DNA of 24,364 nt from positions 1 to 24,364 of the forward strand of contig JAFCBW010000002.1 in the NCBI GenBank assembly GCA_017610525.1, in the 5' to 3' direction. Every line of letters begins with the position of its first letter. Positions within the stretch are counted from its first letter, which is position 1. The translations under genes were made by a program, and so were the position numbers. The notes beneath the pieces are model-generated. The model worked only from the letters and a program-made list of their open reading frames with translations, did no database searches and had not been told where the DNA came from. This document shows positions 2,387 to 16,493 of this stretch, piece after piece. This stretch comes from Candidatus Nanohalarchaeota archaeon. Its GTDB lineage: Archaea > EX4484-52 > B79-G9.

Positions 2387-3028
2387 TCACCTCTTAGCAT
2401 ATCCCACAAGCGAAAACCCGAAAGATGCCCATATCCTCCTGACCTTAACACCCCTGCACCCTGCCTTCTCCATAACCTTCTTCAGATAGCCGGACCGATA
2501 AAAAATCTGCCTGTCAAACGGCCACAAATCAATCCTGCCCACAGCAGTCAAAAACATATAAACAAAATGCAGGGGCGACAAAAAAGCAGGCACAAAAATA
2601 ACCAGATACCCATCCTTCTTAGTCACACGCAACATCTCAGAAACCACATCCTCCGGCACATCAAAATGTTCAATAACCCCCTGGTTCCAGACAACATCAA
2701 AAGATCCCTCATTCATAGGCATCTTAAGAATATCTGCTTTCAAAATCGTACCGCGCGCACAATGAACATCAAGGTTTTCAGAAGCAATCTTAAGAGCATT
2801 ACGAGAAATATCAAGTAACGTAACCTCTGCACCTCTCTTCGCCAAACGCGCAGAAAGCACCCCGGATCCGCACGCAGCCTCAAGGAGATGCACTCCCCGC
2901 ACACCTCCAACAATCCTCACCAGGTTCCCCTCAAACACCCTGCTAAAATACCTCTCATTAACATACTCAATAAATCTCGACACAGCACTCTTCTTAGAGT
3001 AATATTCATTCCACACTTCTTTTGACAT
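2387..3028 (-). CDS. Class I SAM-dependent methyltransferase
   Basis: Motif I LLEAACGSG, then LLDIS, ADILKMP, FDVVWNQGVIEHF and RVTKKDG. Start moved to MSKEVW (3028), which has GGTG upstream. Confidence 0.85.
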   Translation of the reverse strand: MSKEVWNEYYSKKSAVSRFIEYVNERYFSRVFEGNLVRIVGGVRGVHLLEAACGSGVLSARLAKRGAEVTLLDISRNALKIASENLDVHCARGTILKADILKMPMNEGSFDVVWNQGVIEHFDVPEDVVSEMLRVTKKDGYLVIFVPAFLSPLHFVYMFLTAVGRIDLWPFDRQIFYRSGYLKKVMEKAGCRGVKVRRIWASFGFSLVGYAKR

Positions 3029-3046
3029 AAGCACCAACAACACATA

Positions 3047-3132
3047 CATACACACACTTAAGCGCAACGAACCAGTACCCTTTCGTGCACTCGAACAAAA
3101 CACCAATAAGATATCAACCTTTTATAAGGTTG
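3047..3132. repeat. REP-like dispersed element, copy 1 (hairpin CAACCTT-N4-AAGGTTG plus a degenerate CGCTTGAGCGAAGCGA-like part)
   Basis: 3113-3132 matches 19257-19276 at 19/20 nt. 3047-3070 matches 19220-19243 at 15/24 nt. Confidence 0.7.
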
Positions 3133-4534: not shown

Positions 4535-5206
4535 CTAAAATAAATTAACAAACACCCGCCACACATAAATCCCACCCATAATCCAAAGATTAATACCCGA
4601 CTCACCACATTCCCTCGCAAGCTCCATACTAGGAACCTCAACAATCTCATACTTCTTCTTATAGCACTTCATAACCATCTCAGTCTCAATATCAAACCCA
4701 TCTGCCTTCAAACCAAGATCTTTAGCAACCGACCTCCTAATAGCCCTAAACCCATTCTGCGTATCAGCAATGCCCTTGCCAAACCTCCAGTTAATAATCT
4801 GCGCAATACACATACTCATAAACAGCCTGAAAAACTTCGAAAAACTACCATGCAGCTCCTCACTCCCGCCAAGCATCCTCGATGCGATAACCATGTCCAC
4901 AGAACCCTTTTTTATCGGCGCCACAATCTTTGGAATATCCGCTGCAATATGCGAACCATCAGAATCGAAAAACACTAAAATATCACCCTTAGCCTTCCCG
5001 ATAGCAACACGTATTGCATCTCCCTTCCCACGACCATTATCCACAACCACTCTGACACCCATCGACTTTGCAATCTTTTTCGTATCATCACTGGACTTCT
5101 TGGCGCAGACAACAAGCACATCATCACCGTATCGGGCAACACTCTTAATAATCTTCCCGATAGTCTTCTCCTCATTAAAAGCAGGTATCACAATAGTCGT
5201 CTTCAT
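4535..5206 (-). CDS. GT2 glycosyltransferase (dolichol-phosphate mannosyltransferase-like)
   Basis: IVIPAFNEE, GKGDA, DxD motif FFDSDGSH, DTQNGFRAIR and FDIETEM. Confidence 0.9.
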   Translation of the reverse strand: MKTTIVIPAFNEEKTIGKIIKSVARYGDDVLVVCAKKSSDDTKKIAKSMGVRVVVDNGRGKGDAIRVAIGKAKGDILVFFDSDGSHIAADIPKIVAPIKKGSVDMVIASRMLGGSEELHGSFSKFFRLFMSMCIAQIINWRFGKGIADTQNGFRAIRRSVAKDLGLKADGFDIETEMVMKCYKKKYEIVEVPSMELARECGESGINLWIMGGIYVWRVFVNLF

Positions 5207-5322
5207 ACATCATAACCTCAAAATCATCAAGCCATCCACATAAGCACAACACACAGATACAAATATTAAACATGCAAACTTAAAAAATAATTAACAATCA
5301 CAAACTCTATCCCACAAAATAA

Positions 5323-6366: not shown

Positions 6367-7992
6367 CTAACCGGCAAAATCCCGCACTCTCTCGACAAAC
6401 AAATCCGAAGGAACAACAATAGTCACAGGATAACTCATAGGATCATTAAAATGAGCAACATTCCCAAATATCCTGATCTTCTGCTCATCATCAGGATTCC
6501 TAAACCGCCCCCCCTCATCTAAAAACGCCTGCGAAAACATAGAAACCACATATTGCGGCTGATTGCGCTCATAATTGCCAATAAGCACAAAACTGATTCC
6601 ACCCCCCTCAAGCAAATCAACAAAACCCTCCGCATCCCTTGGATAACCACGCACAAACCGATTAGCATACCAATAATACTGCGGAATACTGGCACCAACA
6701 ATAGACTCCCCCACAAGTGACTCAGCCTCAACAAAAGAAGACGCCTGAATCAGCGACGGATAACCAATCGCAGTACTGCGCTCAAGCTTCGGAGCAATCA
6801 CGCCGCTATAATTAAAATACACCGAAACCAAAAGAACCAGCGCACAGGCGCCAAGAGACAAATGCTCACTCTTCAAATCACGCTTCAGCCACGGATACAC
6901 AACCTTCATAAGACCCATACCCGAAAGAACAACCATAAACGGAACCCACGAAACCATCATTCTCTCCTCTTTCCATCCAAACTGGCTAAAGTACAGAAAA
7001 TTTACCAGTAAAATGATAAGACAATACACACCAAAATCCTCCCTCTTATAAACAACATACCCCACCCCAAGCACAAACATTAAAAACACGGTGATACCCA
7101 AAACAGAATAGCCCAAATTCAAATAATAATACCATGGAAACGAAGCCACACTATAAGTACTAATACGATTCTGAGCATCAAGAATACCCCCAATCGCATT
7201 TCCGGTTTCTCCCTGCACATAAATCATCCATGGAGCCAAAACAACCAAAAAAAGAATCAAAGACAAATAAACATGCTTCGACTTAAACAGGCAAGATACT
7301 TTTCTCCTGCTCCCAACCCATAAATACGCAAGATACACCGCCGCCATCACAGCAAAAAGTACAGCATTATATCTCGTAAGAAAAGAAAGCCCAAGAAGAG
7401 AACCTGCCACATAAAAATATTTTGTATTTTCATTAACCCCCACAAAAAAAAACATCGCAGACAAAAAAAACAACGCAGAATAAGTTATATCAGTCAGAGT
7501 ATTCAATGCCAGCGTAAAAAATACAGGAGTACTCGCAAGCAAAACCCCGCAAACAAGAGCAGTTTTCTTATCAGCATATTTTCTCACAAAAAAATACACT
7601 GCAAAAATAGAAAGCAACGCAAACATAATCCCTGATATCTTCGTAGTTTCATAAGACACACCAAACAATGCAAAAGCAACCGCAACAGATAAAGGATACA
7701 CAGGCAGCCGACCTGTCTGAGCCGCACCATTCAGCGCATACCCATCACCCCTCAAGACAGACCGCGCAATAGACGCATACTCCGCCTCATCCCACATAAA
7801 CATCTTATACGCGCCAAGATTAGAGAAAAAAAAGCCCCCCAGCAAAACCAACAGAACTATAACTTCCTTATTCTCAAGAATATATTTTTTAATCGCAGAT
7901 AAAACATTACCCCAATCAAAAAGCTTGGAATCATCCAACTCTCCAGAAATCCCACCATGATTCTTGACCCTTCTCAAACAAACACCCAACAA
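6367..7992 (-). CDS. GT-C fold membrane glycosyltransferase (ArnT/PMT-like); start uncertain
   Basis: WDEAEY first-loop acidic motif, RLPVYP, TDITY, LTRYN and PWYYY in a polytopic membrane protein. Confidence 0.8.
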   Translation of the reverse strand: MLGVCLRRVKNHGGISGELDDSKLFDWGNVLSAIKKYILENKEVIVLLVLLGGFFFSNLGAYKMFMWDEAEYASIARSVLRGDGYALNGAAQTGRLPVYPLSVAVAFALFGVSYETTKISGIMFALLSIFAVYFFVRKYADKKTALVCGVLLASTPVFFTLALNTLTDITYSALFFLSAMFFFVGVNENTKYFYVAGSLLGLSFLTRYNAVLFAVMAAVYLAYLWVGSRRKVSCLFKSKHVYLSLILFLVVLAPWMIYVQGETGNAIGGILDAQNRISTYSVASFPWYYYLNLGYSVLGITVFLMFVLGVGYVVYKREDFGVYCLIILLVNFLYFSQFGWKEERMMVSWVPFMVVLSGMGLMKVVYPWLKRDLKSEHLSLGACALVLLVSVYFNYSGVIAPKLERSTAIGYPSLIQASSFVEAESLVGESIVGASIPQYYWYANRFVRGYPRDAEGFVDLLEGGGISFVLIGNYERNQPQYVVSMFSQAFLDEGGRFRNPDDEQKIRIFGNVAHFNDPMSYPVTIVVPSDLFVERVRDFAG

Positions 7993-11656: not shown

Positions 11657-12403
11657 CTACATCCCGGCAACCAGATACAAAATCAGCCAGATAACAGCCA
11701 CAACACCTATAGGCACCGCAACAGCAATCCCTACACTCTTCTTACCCACTTTATGCACCAAAGAAAGATTAAAAACCGCAAGAACAAACCCATAAATCGC
11801 AGGCAGCACCCAAAGGTACGACAGCGGCGCAAAAACAATAACCGACCATGAATACGCAAGCACCTGCACAGTATCAACAAAAGAACCCTTCCCATTCAGC
11901 GCCCGGATTATCATGTGAACCACACATCCAAAGACAACAAACGAAACCGAACACAACAAAACAAAATACAAAACATTGACCGCAAAATACAAAAACGAAC
12001 CACCAAAAACATAATCCACCGCAGACCTGAAAAAAGAAAAAACACATATATTCAAAAAGACATAGACTATCGCTTTCGAAAAATTCACCCCCTCCAAGCC
12101 TCTCAATTCATCAACAAAATTCACAGGATGCGCCAGCACATACTCAAACTTCTGAAAATGCACCTTGATGTCCCACTTCCCAAACTCAGCCCTGACCCCC
12201 TTAACCATATCCACCAACCGAAAGCCCTGATCCTTCGCACGAGCATCATACTCAAGAATGACACTTTCAATCAGCTCATCCACAACATCTACATTATACC
12301 CAAACTCAGCCAAAATCCCCCTCATCTTATCAACACTATACCCATCCCGGTAGCGGGAAACAATCCACTCCCTAAGTAGCCTGTCACTCAAAACATCATC
12401 CAT
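11657..12403 (-). CDS. Yip1-domain membrane protein with a small helical N-terminal domain
   Basis: HP..F.DEL followed by about five TM segments, with G.F..T..V.AYSW typical of Yip1. Start moved to MDDVL, 1 nt after the CYTH stop. Confidence 0.7.
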   Translation of the reverse strand: MDDVLSDRLLREWIVSRYRDGYSVDKMRGILAEFGYNVDVVDELIESVILEYDARAKDQGFRLVDMVKGVRAEFGKWDIKVHFQKFEYVLAHPVNFVDELRGLEGVNFSKAIVYVFLNICVFSFFRSAVDYVFGGSFLYFAVNVLYFVLLCSVSFVVFGCVVHMIIRALNGKGSFVDTVQVLAYSWSVIVFAPLSYLWVLPAIYGFVLAVFNLSLVHKVGKKSVGIAVAVPIGVVAVIWLILYLVAGM

Positions 12404-14161: not shown

Positions 14162-14737
14162 TCACCCCAACATCTTATAAATACTCCAGAACCTCTGCAA
14201 AAACGTAACAAAAGAAAGCGCAAGAATCAGATAAACAGAATAAAGAAGCGCACCGCTAAAAACACACATCCCGACCGCCCCGAAAAACAGCACCACATGC
14301 CGATCAGACCTCCCCGCAATCCCGCCATAAAACCTTTCCTTAGTAAGCGCCTGCGCCTGCGTCCCAAGATAAGACACAAGAATCAGGCAAACAAGCGTCA
14401 AAAAAACCACATCGCGCGGCATCAAAGGATTATAAGCGATCCCTACAAAAATGAAAACATCCGAAACCCGATCAAAAGTATGATCAATAAAATCCCCCCT
14501 CTTCGTCGGCTTCCACTTACCGTTCTTCGCAATCTCCCCGTCAACAATATCCAAAAAGCCATTAAGAAACAAAAAAAACGCAGCCAACAAAAACATTCCC
14601 GAAAAGAAAAAATACCCTGAAACCACAGCACATAAAAGCGCAACCGTACTCACAATATTCGGATTGACATTAACAATAAACGGCGCAACAATGCGCTTCC
14701 TCAAGCCAGGATATTTCTTCACCAACTGCACAAGCAT
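14162..14737 (-). CDS. CDP-alcohol phosphatidyltransferase (archaetidylinositol-phosphate synthase-like)
   Basis: NPN..S and the signature DIVDGEIAK...GDFIDHTFDRVSD. Confidence 0.9.
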   Translation of the reverse strand: MLVQLVKKYPGLRKRIVAPFIVNVNPNIVSTVALLCAVVSGYFFFSGMFLLAAFFLFLNGFLDIVDGEIAKNGKWKPTKRGDFIDHTFDRVSDVFIFVGIAYNPLMPRDVVFLTLVCLILVSYLGTQAQALTKERFYGGIAGRSDRHVVLFFGAVGMCVFSGALLYSVYLILALSFVTFLQRFWSIYKMLG

Positions 14738-14756: not shown

Positions 14757-14996
14757 TCAAAAAATCATGAAAATTTTGGGTTAATATGAGTATTTTCAAG
14801 CTTTTTGATTGTCGATTCGTACTTCATATACAATCAAAAAATCATGAAAATTTTGGGCTAATATAAGCATTTTCAAGCTTTTTGATTGTCGATTCGTACT
14901 TCATATACAATCAAAAAATCATGAAAATTTTGGGCTAATATAAGCATTTTCATGCTTTTTGATTGTCGATTCGTACTTCATATACAATCAAAAAAT
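14757..14996. repeat. 77-bp tandem repeat, 3 units plus 9 bp, each unit made of two inverted repeats
   Basis: GTCGATTCGT recurs at 14811, 14888 and 14965 (period 77). The units differ at only a few positions. Confidence 0.95.
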
Positions 14997-15079: not shown

Positions 15080-16105
15080 CTAACCCCATCTCCCAAGCGT
15101 AGTCTGCTTCTTCTGCTCACAGATATCATCAAGCTTGCGAAACATACTATCAACCCTCTCAGAAGAAAACCCATGCCGCACACACATAATCTCCCGGATC
15201 TTCCCTCTGTCCGCCTCCCCTTGGGTAACATCACAATCAGAAACAACCGGCGGCTTCATAAAAAACTCATGAATCTCCCGCATAGAGACATCAAACCCCC
15301 ACTCAACATTCCGCTCAAGCTCAGAAAGATTCTTGTGCTTCAAGACAAGCTTAAGCGCATTCTTAGGCCCAACCCCCTTAATCCCCCCCGGATTATAATC
15401 TGTACCGATAAGAATCCCAAGATTAACCAGCTGCTCACGAGTCAACTTCAACTCAGCAAGAACCACTGAAAGCTCAATCATCTCCGGCTTAACCTCCCTG
15501 TAGACACTCGCACCCGCAACCTTCCTCTTCCCCGAAACATTCAGGTTCCGCACAAGCCTAGGCGCCCCAAACAAAAGCGTATCATAATCACTCGAAGCAA
15601 CAGCATAGGCCATCCCCTTGCGCGCCATATAAGCTGCCTGCGCCTCACCCTCTGAGGGCGCCTCAACCACAGGAATCCCAAGCGCGCACAAAAGCTCCTT
15701 AGACTCAAGCAACATCCCATCCGTAATCTCAACCGACGCCTGTGCATACTTCTTCGCATCAGAAACCCGCCCCTCATCACGCGCCTCCTCCCACTTCCTC
15801 TTGGCATCCGCCCGCGCCTTGCGCCTCACTGAATTCGTACTCGCCTTAAACTCCGGCGGCTTGCCATCAAACACATAAACAAGACCCACACCTGCCTGCA
15901 TAAGATTAAGAGACCTGTAAAAAATCCCCGAAAGGTGGCTCGTAACATCCCCATTCTCATCCTTAAGCGGCGTCCCGTCATACTGGCGGATAATCGAAAG
16001 AAACTGGTAAAGCGTATTCAGCGCATCCACAGCAAGCGTCTTGCCACGGAAATCCTCTGCAGAAACCTCCCTTCTCGAAACAATATCAGCAATCTTCACA
16101 CCCAT
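15080..16105 (-). CDS. fen: Flap endonuclease 1
   Basis: MGV start, DALNTLYQF, VFDGKPP, APSEGEAQAAY, SSDYD.LLFG, GTDYNPGG and a C-terminal PIP box QTTLGRW. Confidence 0.97.
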   Translation of the reverse strand: MGVKIADIVSRREVSAEDFRGKTLAVDALNTLYQFLSIIRQYDGTPLKDENGDVTSHLSGIFYRSLNLMQAGVGLVYVFDGKPPEFKASTNSVRRKARADAKRKWEEARDEGRVSDAKKYAQASVEITDGMLLESKELLCALGIPVVEAPSEGEAQAAYMARKGMAYAVASSDYDTLLFGAPRLVRNLNVSGKRKVAGASVYREVKPEMIELSVVLAELKLTREQLVNLGILIGTDYNPGGIKGVGPKNALKLVLKHKNLSELERNVEWGFDVSMREIHEFFMKPPVVSDCDVTQGEADRGKIREIMCVRHGFSSERVDSMFRKLDDICEQKKQTTLGRWG

Positions 16106-16229
16106 AAGACACACCACACCAACAGACAACCTGCCAACAGATAACTATACCTAATAATACCCAAAAAAAAATATAAACATAATGCCTGCAAAAGAACAGC
16201 ACAAAAAAACAAATATTAGAAATACTTAC

Positions 16230-16493
16230 TCAAATCAAAGTAACACCGGTATTCTCCGCATCCTGTACTCCCTCAACATCGCGAAGCTTACCCTCAATCT
16301 TCTCCAGAAGTCCGCCCTCATCAGCCATAAGAACAAGCACAATCAACTGCTTCAATCCAAAAGCAATATCCTCCTGCTTCATCTCCTTAATATCACCAAT
16401 ATCAAGCTCCCTGATACGGGACTCAACAGCATTCAGATCAACCTCAACCGACTCAGGCATAACCCTGAAAGTCGCAAGCACATTACTACCCAT
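16230..16493 (-). CDS. ef1b: Archaeal elongation factor 1-beta
   Basis: VMPES.EVDL and IAFGLKQL motifs, GGTGA RBS, and adjacency to the Zn-finger gene. Confidence 0.93.
   Translation of the reverse strand: MGSNVLATFRVMPESVEVDLNAVESRIRELDIGDIKEMKQEDIAFGLKQLIVLVLMADEGGLLEKIEGKLRDVEGVQDAENTGVTLI

Follow-up and report, generated by a model that had tools for sequence, protein, structure and literature searches.

The closest analogues of the repeat described here are the REP/REPIN sequences and the hairpin elements derived from IS200/IS605 (PATEs). Short, modular, hairpin-forming intergenic repeats are also known as the pneumococcal BOX and the Neisseria Correia elements, some of which have tandem subunits and which can supply neighboring genes with promoters or terminators. 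Terminal inverted repeats and a duplicated TA mark the Correia elements, and we know of no target rule described for BOX modules. Neither is known to be related in sequence to the element reported here. IS200/IS605 elements transpose as single strands ('peel and paste'), with hairpin ends in place of inverted repeats. IS608 uses a guide next to the hairpin foot that pairs with the cleavage site (PMC3201880), and it prefers the lagging-strand template (PMC5027513). PATEs are short non-autonomous IS200/IS605 derivatives in archaea (PMC3119063), and a mobilisation of folded single-stranded DNA has been proposed for the REP/RAYT system (PMC2817692, PMC3116915, PMC3333891).

We analyzed a 24,364-nt stretch of archaeal DNA (the window), which is contig C29 of a 1.28-Mb, 206-contig metagenome-assembled genome (MAG) that is 81% complete (G000). 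Related DNA is found in marine-sediment and cold-seep metagenomes, and the relatives carry the NCBI labels 'archaeon' or 'Candidatus Nanohalarchaeota archaeon'. The GTDB phylum, class and order each contain the same 42 species genomes. For comparison we used the genomes of seven other species of the genus (congeners, e.g. G001-G006) and of more distant relatives; the genomes compared are 59-91% complete. We find that the tandem repeat at 14757-14996 of the window is not a locus-specific regulatory sequence but several adjoining copies of a two-hairpin element that is spread through the lineage and polymorphic in its insertion sites. The best explanation of the whole, which we consider likely, is that the array consists of three head-to-tail copies of a non-autonomous mobile element of ~75-77 nt that moves through single-stranded DNA.

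TRF identifies 14757-14996 as one tandem array (period 77, 3.1 copies, 97% matches, score 452). No other repeat of the window comes close to it in strength, and repeat finding likewise returns three copies spaced 77 nt. Together with the inverted-repeat search, this bears out the original prediction of a 77-bp array with two inverted repeats per unit, including its unit arithmetic (35+1+39+2). The first inverted repeat has arms of 9-15 nt (CATGAAAAT/ATTTTCA(A/T)G in each unit), the second has perfect 11-nt arms, and in both the arms are 17 nt apart (Table 1). Units 1 and 2 differ at three bases (T/C, G/A, T/C), among them the predicted inner change from GTT/AGT to GCT/AGC, while units 2 and 3 differ at one, an A>T that gives CATG/CATG. 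T makes up 38% of the array and C 13%, whereas the flanking DNA has 20% T and 32% C, and the window's + strand is A/C-rich, so that its description as T-rich against the skew was accurate. It ends, as predicted, close to the start of a lipid synthase gene, 19-20 nt from the start codon at 14737 (minus strand).

Table 1. Positions of the array, its parts, a second copy and the adjoining genes in the window.
Feature	Position	Strand	Remarks
Second copy of the element	7878..7972	-	solo, diverged; nhmmer E 2.1e-7; CM 52 bits, E 8e-7
CDP-alcohol phosphatidyltransferase	14162..14737	-	PF01066, E 2.7e-10; array inserted in its leader/upstream region
Target-derived TCAAAAAA	14757..14764	+	adjoins first unit on its 5' side; sole copy of the 8-mer kept at the relatives' empty orthologous site
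Unit 1	14765..14841	+	CM 85.8 bits; hairpin-1 loop nearest the family consensus; order 5' to 3': TCATG, hairpin 1, CAAGC, TTTTTGAT, hairpin-2 loop, CAATCAAAAAA
Hairpin 1, unit 1	14766..14800	+	arms CATGAAAAT / ATTTTCAAG, 17-nt loop; recurs at +77 and +154
Hairpin 2, unit 1	14802..14840	+	arms TTTTTGATTGT / ACAATCAAAAA, 17-nt TATA-like loop; recurs at +77 and +154
Unit 2	14842..14918	+	CM 82.5 bits; three derived substitutions common to unit 3
Unit 3	14919..14995	+	CM 79.8 bits; a single A>T makes the hairpin-1 base fully palindromic
FEN1/XPG-type flap endonuclease	15080..16129	-	PF00867 and PF00752; 3' end faces the array

The number of three units is that of the assembly; no single read or other contig confirms it, and none of the contig pieces compared at this place spans the array. 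One near-identical metagenome contig (X2) has a one-unit form, possibly through k-mer collapse over a 43-nt ambiguous join. A single unit in the reads had been named as the mark of an assembly artefact; the point differences between the units argue against a pure artefact.

Copies of the unit are dispersed through the genome. When the MAG was searched by BLAST with one unit, 11 diverged copies came up elsewhere than on C29; iterated nhmmer raised the number to 56, and a covariance model (CM) built from 21 full copies gave 62 hits at E values up to 0.01. We thus place about 55-60 copies at 44 loci in G000, 10 of which (about a quarter) are tandem, with periods of 66-77 nt and two of ~130 nt; tandem arrays with 66-77-nt periods recur at other loci and in other species. 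The two-hairpin CM finds 20-44 copies per genome in all eight genomes of the genus, 3-25 in the sister genus (4/4 genomes) and 0-2 in a third genus, with sporadic single copies or none in the other families of the 42-genome phylum. A strict hairpin-1 pattern matches G000 at 30 places and each of the seven congeners at 13-33; it is present in all 15 family genomes scanned, with no hit to the reversed control in any genome. (A permissive hairpin-1 regular expression was swamped by false positives and was dropped.) The family fills roughly 0.3-0.4% of a genome of ~1.3-1.6 Mb.

The copies are almost all intergenic, lying between tandem (24), divergent (8) or convergent (4) genes with no excess between convergent genes. 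Their orientation shows no preference relative to the neighboring genes (downstream gene in the same orientation at ~24, opposite at 25), which argues against a general promoter role. None of the 17 tRNAs called by ARAGORN lies within 400 nt of any copy. These 17 calls were made without intron-aware settings, and one of them, a 98-nt 'tRNA-Pyl (CTA)' at G000:C20:7409-7506 (minus), has a length that suggests an intron-containing tRNA or a false call. Twelve of the 44 loci are less than 400 nt from a contig end, a zone that holds 12.8% of the genome, and this over-representation indicates that the repeats break the assembly.

At Rfam 15 gathering thresholds there was no match anywhere in the window, and at E values up to 1 only sub-threshold, miRNA-like chance hairpins appeared. 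No K-turn, C/D-box or hammerhead motif fits either strand when inspected by eye. A pattern scan of genome contigs gave mostly single chance matches across bacteria, with several per genome only in a few archaeal MAGs. The scan of viral contigs gave 105 matches, mostly to one conserved phage coding sequence. None of these matches the family HMM, and those inspected are without complementary arms, so none counts as a member of the family. We found no described family for these units. The original prediction had allowed that the arms might prove to match the ends of a known MITE or IS; this holds in spirit, in that the unit is a genome-wide, insertion-polymorphic repeat, though one for which no described family was found.

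In the alignment of the 21 full copies, the invariant parts are an A-run, a T-run, positions in both loops and the base of hairpin 1, which consists of ATCAT and AAGCT. In this base a C-G pair is enclosed by two mismatches, likewise conserved. Across genera the T5/A5 tracts and the TATA-like loop of hairpin 2 are constant, and copies from three genera and a second family retain AAAAATCAT, AAGCTTTTTNAT and the hairpin-2 loop motif CTTTATA(T/C)AC(A/G)AT, which resembles the genome's own TATA-like upstream motifs, peaking at -40 to -21 from start codons. Of the two TATA-like stretches predicted, the one in the hairpin-2 loop is therefore family-wide, and the one in the hairpin-1 loop is limited to the subfamily of this copy. 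The ends of the element (TCATG... and ...AAAAAA) are not inverted repeats. The GTAG/CGTC tag is absent, the conserved flanks being AAAAATCAT and AAGCTTTTT.

The stems have changed in sequence and have stayed paired (96.3% of cells in the 21-copy alignment), with arms such as GAAAAT/ATTTTC, GGAAAT/ATTTCC and AGGAT/ATCCT among the variants. Covariation is 0.354, against 0.145 in shuffled alignments (0/500) and at most 0.148 with partners slid, and double-sided changes occur at 6 of the 17 pairs (53 cells). At four positions of hairpin 1, G-C and A-T pairs are exchanged in 8-9 of the 21 copies, and one hairpin-2 pair occurs as all four Watson-Crick types (CG, UA, AU, GC). G.T and A.C mispairs number about five each in a by-eye count on the strict-pattern list, a weak measure that singles out neither strand. 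The stems thus conserve structure, the core and loops sequence, which points to a folded single strand, DNA or RNA, that is read specifically, and excludes a dimeric operator. A second fold is available to this strand: the 5' arm of hairpin 2, TTTTTGATTGT, can pair leftward with the preceding ATCAAAAA to form an extended hairpin 1, which is the predicted MFE fold inside the array on both strands (z = -3.9, -5.0).

Orthologous sites differ between species in the presence of copies. The spacer between the FEN1 and transferase genes is ~105 nt long in G001, G005 and G006 and has no array. The G006 spacer is too diverged for a base-by-base comparison; in G001 and G005, ...CTCAAAAAA runs straight into the right flank with a single TCAAAAAA. 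In a cold-seep metagenome contig (X6; 1526 nt, ~90% identical), one base separates the equivalents of 14754 and 14988, and TCAAAAAA is again single. The insertion in front of the lipid-synthesis gene is recent. Five further copies of G000 are missing from congeners at sites whose flanks are 72-95% identical: the C170 copy from five congeners, the C159 copy from G001, the C142 copy from G002 and G005, the C53:3503 copy from G001 and G003 (decayed in G005), and the C136 copy, which lies within a 213-nt hairpin chain, from G001, G003 and G002 (flanks up to 95% identical). The reverse case is a copy common to G003 and G004 that is missing at G000:C203, where the empty site reads CA-TTTTTTAA-CC; a reverse search for further empty sites in G000 from the relatives' loci returned orthologous filled sites only. 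Filled sites are conserved at C24, C94 and C31, with two units in G001 against one in G000 at C24. Copies of one sub-lineage are 91-93% identical between species in which flanks are 77-88% identical, yet these copies occupy different loci.

Other repeats were noted in G000. The C136 chain (G000:C136:~12180-12392; locus L182, 702-914) is a 213-nt AATAA-flanked composite of four hairpins joined by A5/T5 tracts, of which one module is the two-hairpin element. Other modules follow hairpin 1 at C78, C110, C178, C184 and C191, for example CTTCCTTTGCAACAATAGCATAGAAAAAGG and then GGAAATAC...ATTTCCGCAGAT. Copies of hairpin 1 also occur in a longer repeat (C19:~5030-5250, C162:~2960-3130, C182:~7780-7950 and ~15990-16240) that has inverted GTCAACAAC ... 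GTTGTTGAC ends and a GCCGGTCTATTGACCGGC hairpin and may be a larger, MITE-like carrier. At G000:C94:10544-10704 (locus L180, ~645-805) there is an unrelated repeat of ~160 nt, with many copies of 79-96% identity in all five genus genomes searched; it is missing at the orthologous G001 site and is thus another mobile element.

In + orientation the element starts with TCATG and ends with CAATNAAAAA(A), and its interior runs from TCATG through hairpin 1, CAAGC, TTTTTNAT and the TATA-like loop to ATNAAAAAA. Immediately upstream of TCATG, the host DNA is similar to the 3' end of the element (TCAAAAAA in the window, AATAAAAAA at C53), with a left-flank consensus of ATNAAAAA in 16-19 of the 21 copies. 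Two sequences are complementary to the internal TTTTTNAT: the 3' end of the element itself (95% paired) and the left flank, where the variable N of TTTTTNAT, which differs between sublineages, is matched in 16 of 21 copies. Pairing to the right would thus form hairpin 2, and pairing to the left a longer hairpin 1. The left flank of solo copies fits their own 3' arm better than the arms of other copies (permutation p about 1e-4).

No target duplication was found at the two sites where the register is readable. Of the two repeat copies that flank the C203-site insertion, the left one, TTTTTTAT (printed strand), pairs with the interior of the element, and the right one, TTTTTTAA, is identical to the empty site, so that both junctions can be explained without duplication. 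The C159 junction has no direct repeat, and the insertion follows a poor match to the target rule. At the window, C53, C142 and C136 sites there are direct repeats of 5-9 nt, for which similarity to the target and duplication are alike possible. Direct repeats at most sites blur the exact cut points, and loss by recombination between 8-9-nt repeats looks the same as excision.

At 30 loci the + orientation coincides with the G/T-rich strand, compared with 13 where it coincides with the A/C-rich strand, a modest bias among copies that are not independent. Replication direction is here read from skew only, and the direction of the bias is that expected from insertion into the exposed lagging-strand template, as for IS608 (PMC5027513). 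The strand skew of G000 is itself extreme, with (A+C-G-T)/N per contig typically +/-0.13 to 0.31 (mean absolute 0.20) and a sign that varies from contig to contig.

These features suggest how the element might move and how the array arose. The element would be cut out and rejoined in the form of folded single-stranded DNA, much as IS200/IS605 and REP sequences are. TTTTTNAT, which adjoins the hairpin-1 foot, would serve as a guide for both partners, pairing with the 3' end of the element itself, as hairpin 2, and with the target, as extended hairpin 1. The resemblance of the target to the element's own 3' end would explain the head-to-tail arrays: newcomers would find their best target in the 3' end of a resident copy and insert behind it, and slippage between units could also build arrays or alter their unit number. 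At this locus, the element would first have entered TCAAAAAA, ~20 nt upstream of the lipid-synthase start, and then have grown in place. Growth in place is indicated by three changes common to units 2 and 3 and not found in unit 1, the one nearer the subfamily consensus. Among the original inferences, a recombination-site array or hairpin-forming locus came closest, the units being copies of a mobile hairpin element and not a one-off operator.

A search for the enzyme found no match to the Y1 (HUH) transposase family PF01797 in G000 (81% complete); of 16 family genomes, all incomplete, 3 have a match. The family HMM matches neither these Y1 loci nor the one TnpB locus. One of the Y1 loci, G005:C145:12799-13161 (locus L235), encodes an intact IS200-type Y1 transposase (179-aa frame) flanked by near-identical hairpins CCCAGT..GCGACCGAAGGGAGCGG..ACTGGG; this is a typical insertion sequence of the IS200/IS605 family and has no relation to the two-hairpin element. 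A XerA-like tyrosine recombinase is present, and we found no link between it and the element. Its gene (276 aa, C156, 3070-3540 minus) has beside it an almost perfect 11-nt inverted repeat, ATCTTATATGC ... GCATATAAGAT (G000:C156:3852-3900), which may be a dif/att-type site or a promoter. A bolder proposal, which we regard as tentative and somewhat unlikely, is that the family is a new enzyme-orphan, single-strand hairpin transposon, whose 8-nt guide TTTTTNAT would program the target and, by pairing with the element's own end, build arrays, with an undescribed nuclease/ligase or a recruited host enzyme of this little-known DPANN-type phylum as its machinery, given that most of these genomes show no Y1 transposase.

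The element shares with IS200/IS605 hairpins of conserved structure in place of terminal inverted repeats. It may further share the lack of target duplication (as at the two readable sites), insertion 3' of a short sequence, a guide by the hairpin foot that is complementary to the target, and an orientation bias relative to replication, here judged from skew. The geometry differs from that of IS608, whose guides lie 5' of the hairpin foot, whereas the putative guide lies 3' of hairpin 1 on the target-bearing + strand. Further differences are that no cognate Y1 transposase was found here and the Y1 IS of the congeners has unrelated hairpins; that one putative guide would serve both ends; that the target resembles the element's own 3' end over 8 nt, compared with 4-5; and that head-to-tail tandem arrays are common. 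With REP, BIME and REPIN sequences the element shares dozens of short intergenic palindromes per genome, compensatory stem changes, clustered and composite arrangements and lineage-specific sequence classes. REPs are 20-40 nt long with a 5' GTAG/CGTC tag and form inverted pairs (BIME/REPIN), whereas the present element has ~77 nt and two different hairpins arranged head to tail. In contrast to bacterial REPs, its host is an archaeon, and no RAYT was found (PF01797 negative in G000). Overall, the element appears to work most like REP sequences and PATEs, though without their transposase.

Four described classes were rejected. The array resembles a CRISPR array in its regular ~70-nt periodicity and palindromic repeat, but the inter-repeat segments are the same in all units (1-4 point differences per unit) and conserved across loci, and copies are dispersed singly; the original prediction was right on both counts, that the spacers are shared and that this is not a CRISPR array. 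A DDE-type MITE is contradicted by ends without TIRs and by flanking repeats that vary (0, 5, 7-8 or 9 nt), a tagged REP by conserved flanks without GTAG/CGTC, and membership of an Rfam family by the lack of any match at the gathering threshold.

Other explanations of the repeat were weighed against a mobile hairpin element. Each unit could be a mini-gene for a hairpin RNA of ~45 nt on the window's minus strand, the array being a three-gene cluster of a multi-copy small-RNA family, which might be mobile as well. The hairpin-2 loop would then be the TATA box (TATATAAA-like), with the start ~22 nt on at GCUUG, hairpin 1 as the RNA and T5-6 as terminator. Such a layout would account for the near invariance of the loop sequence CTTTATA(T/C)AC across genera and families and its likeness to the genome's TATA-like motifs, the fixed spacing of ~21-22 nt from this loop to the hairpin-1 base, the T5-6 that always follows hairpin 1, the conserved hairpin-1 loop positions (TTGG...) and the conserved mismatches, which on the minus strand are G.A and U.U and are tolerated in RNA. 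We nevertheless consider it unlikely, as no listed run that holds the array stretch is on record as RNA, Rfam has no match, the by-eye G.U and A.C counts favor neither strand, no good BRE lies on either side of the TATA-like box to define a direction, and hairpin-2 subtype modules without a TATA exist (C31, C160); copies that come and go between sister species would also be unusual for a functional RNA gene. Host-selected punctuation would explain the A-tract/stem/T-tract shape, the TATA-like loops, the intergenic position of nearly all copies and the placement of some directly upstream of Shine-Dalgarno-led starts (C54, C87, C170): hairpin 1 (A5-stem-T5) would be a bidirectional terminator and hairpin 2 a promoter cassette, reinforced by repetition between FEN1 and the lipid synthase. 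The copies, though, prefer neither a gene orientation nor convergent genes, sister species have no array in the same spacer, and termination needs no sequence common to ~55 sites, which makes this reading very unlikely.

Spread might instead be passive, by template switching or recombination at the A-rich direct repeats ATNAAAAA and stalling at hairpins, with slippage resizing the arrays and no dedicated enzyme. The 5-9-nt direct repeats at filled sites, of which the empty site keeps one, would fit such a process, as would the match of the left flank to the copy's own 3' end, the change in unit number at a conserved site (two in G001, one in G000) and the failure to find a cognate transposase. 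Passive spread leaves unexplained why core, loops and the TATA-like loop stay near-invariant across genera and families while the stems drift and covary; the C159 insertion has no repeat, and template switches over long distances would repeatedly have to rely on homology as short as 8 nt. We therefore judge it distinctly unlikely. The multimeric operator of the original prediction, here taken as the site of a dimeric regulator of the lipid-synthase gene, drew on the two inverted repeats per unit, their constant 17-bp spacing and the nearby gene start. It is contradicted by the recurrence of this architecture at 44 loci, where the adjoining genes are unrelated and both orientations occur, by arms that covary in sequence and remain complementary, and by an invariant core, ATCAT/AAGCT, that is asymmetric and without self-complementary (dyad) symmetry; the site is moreover missing in congeners, and we hold an operator to be exceedingly improbable.

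All genes around the array lie on the minus strand; besides the FEN1 nuclease and the transferase they are aIF-2B, CYTH, Yip1, AglB/STT3 and HycI. The insertion point is ~20 nt upstream of the transferase ATG, between a Shine-Dalgarno-like GGGTGG and the ancestral spacer, and 231 bp (three 77-bp units) now part the gene from its old upstream region. On the coding strand every unit closes with a hairpin followed by T6, likely a stop for archaeal RNA polymerase. In the proximal unit, the minus strand of the hairpin-1 loop has the sequence CTCATATTAA, which is preceded by GAAAAT and occupies -53 to -44 relative to the start codon at 14737. Its geometry makes it a candidate TATA box for the transferase gene, with a predicted transcription start ~20 nt before the ATG, and this box within the proximal unit probably drives the gene now. 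As the TATA-like hairpin-1 loop is peculiar to this subfamily, it may be kept for restoring expression.

Repeats of the REP, REPIN and PATE type are well studied in bacteria, whereas few descriptions exist for uncultivated archaea of the DPANN type with their tiny genomes. Should guide pairing underlie the target rule, the element would be a simple natural case of sequence-programmed single-strand integration, pointing to an as yet unfound enzyme; if the units are transcribed, it would be a mobile small-RNA gene. The family accounts for contig breaks in these MAGs, and its presence/absence sites are a sharp marker of strains and species.
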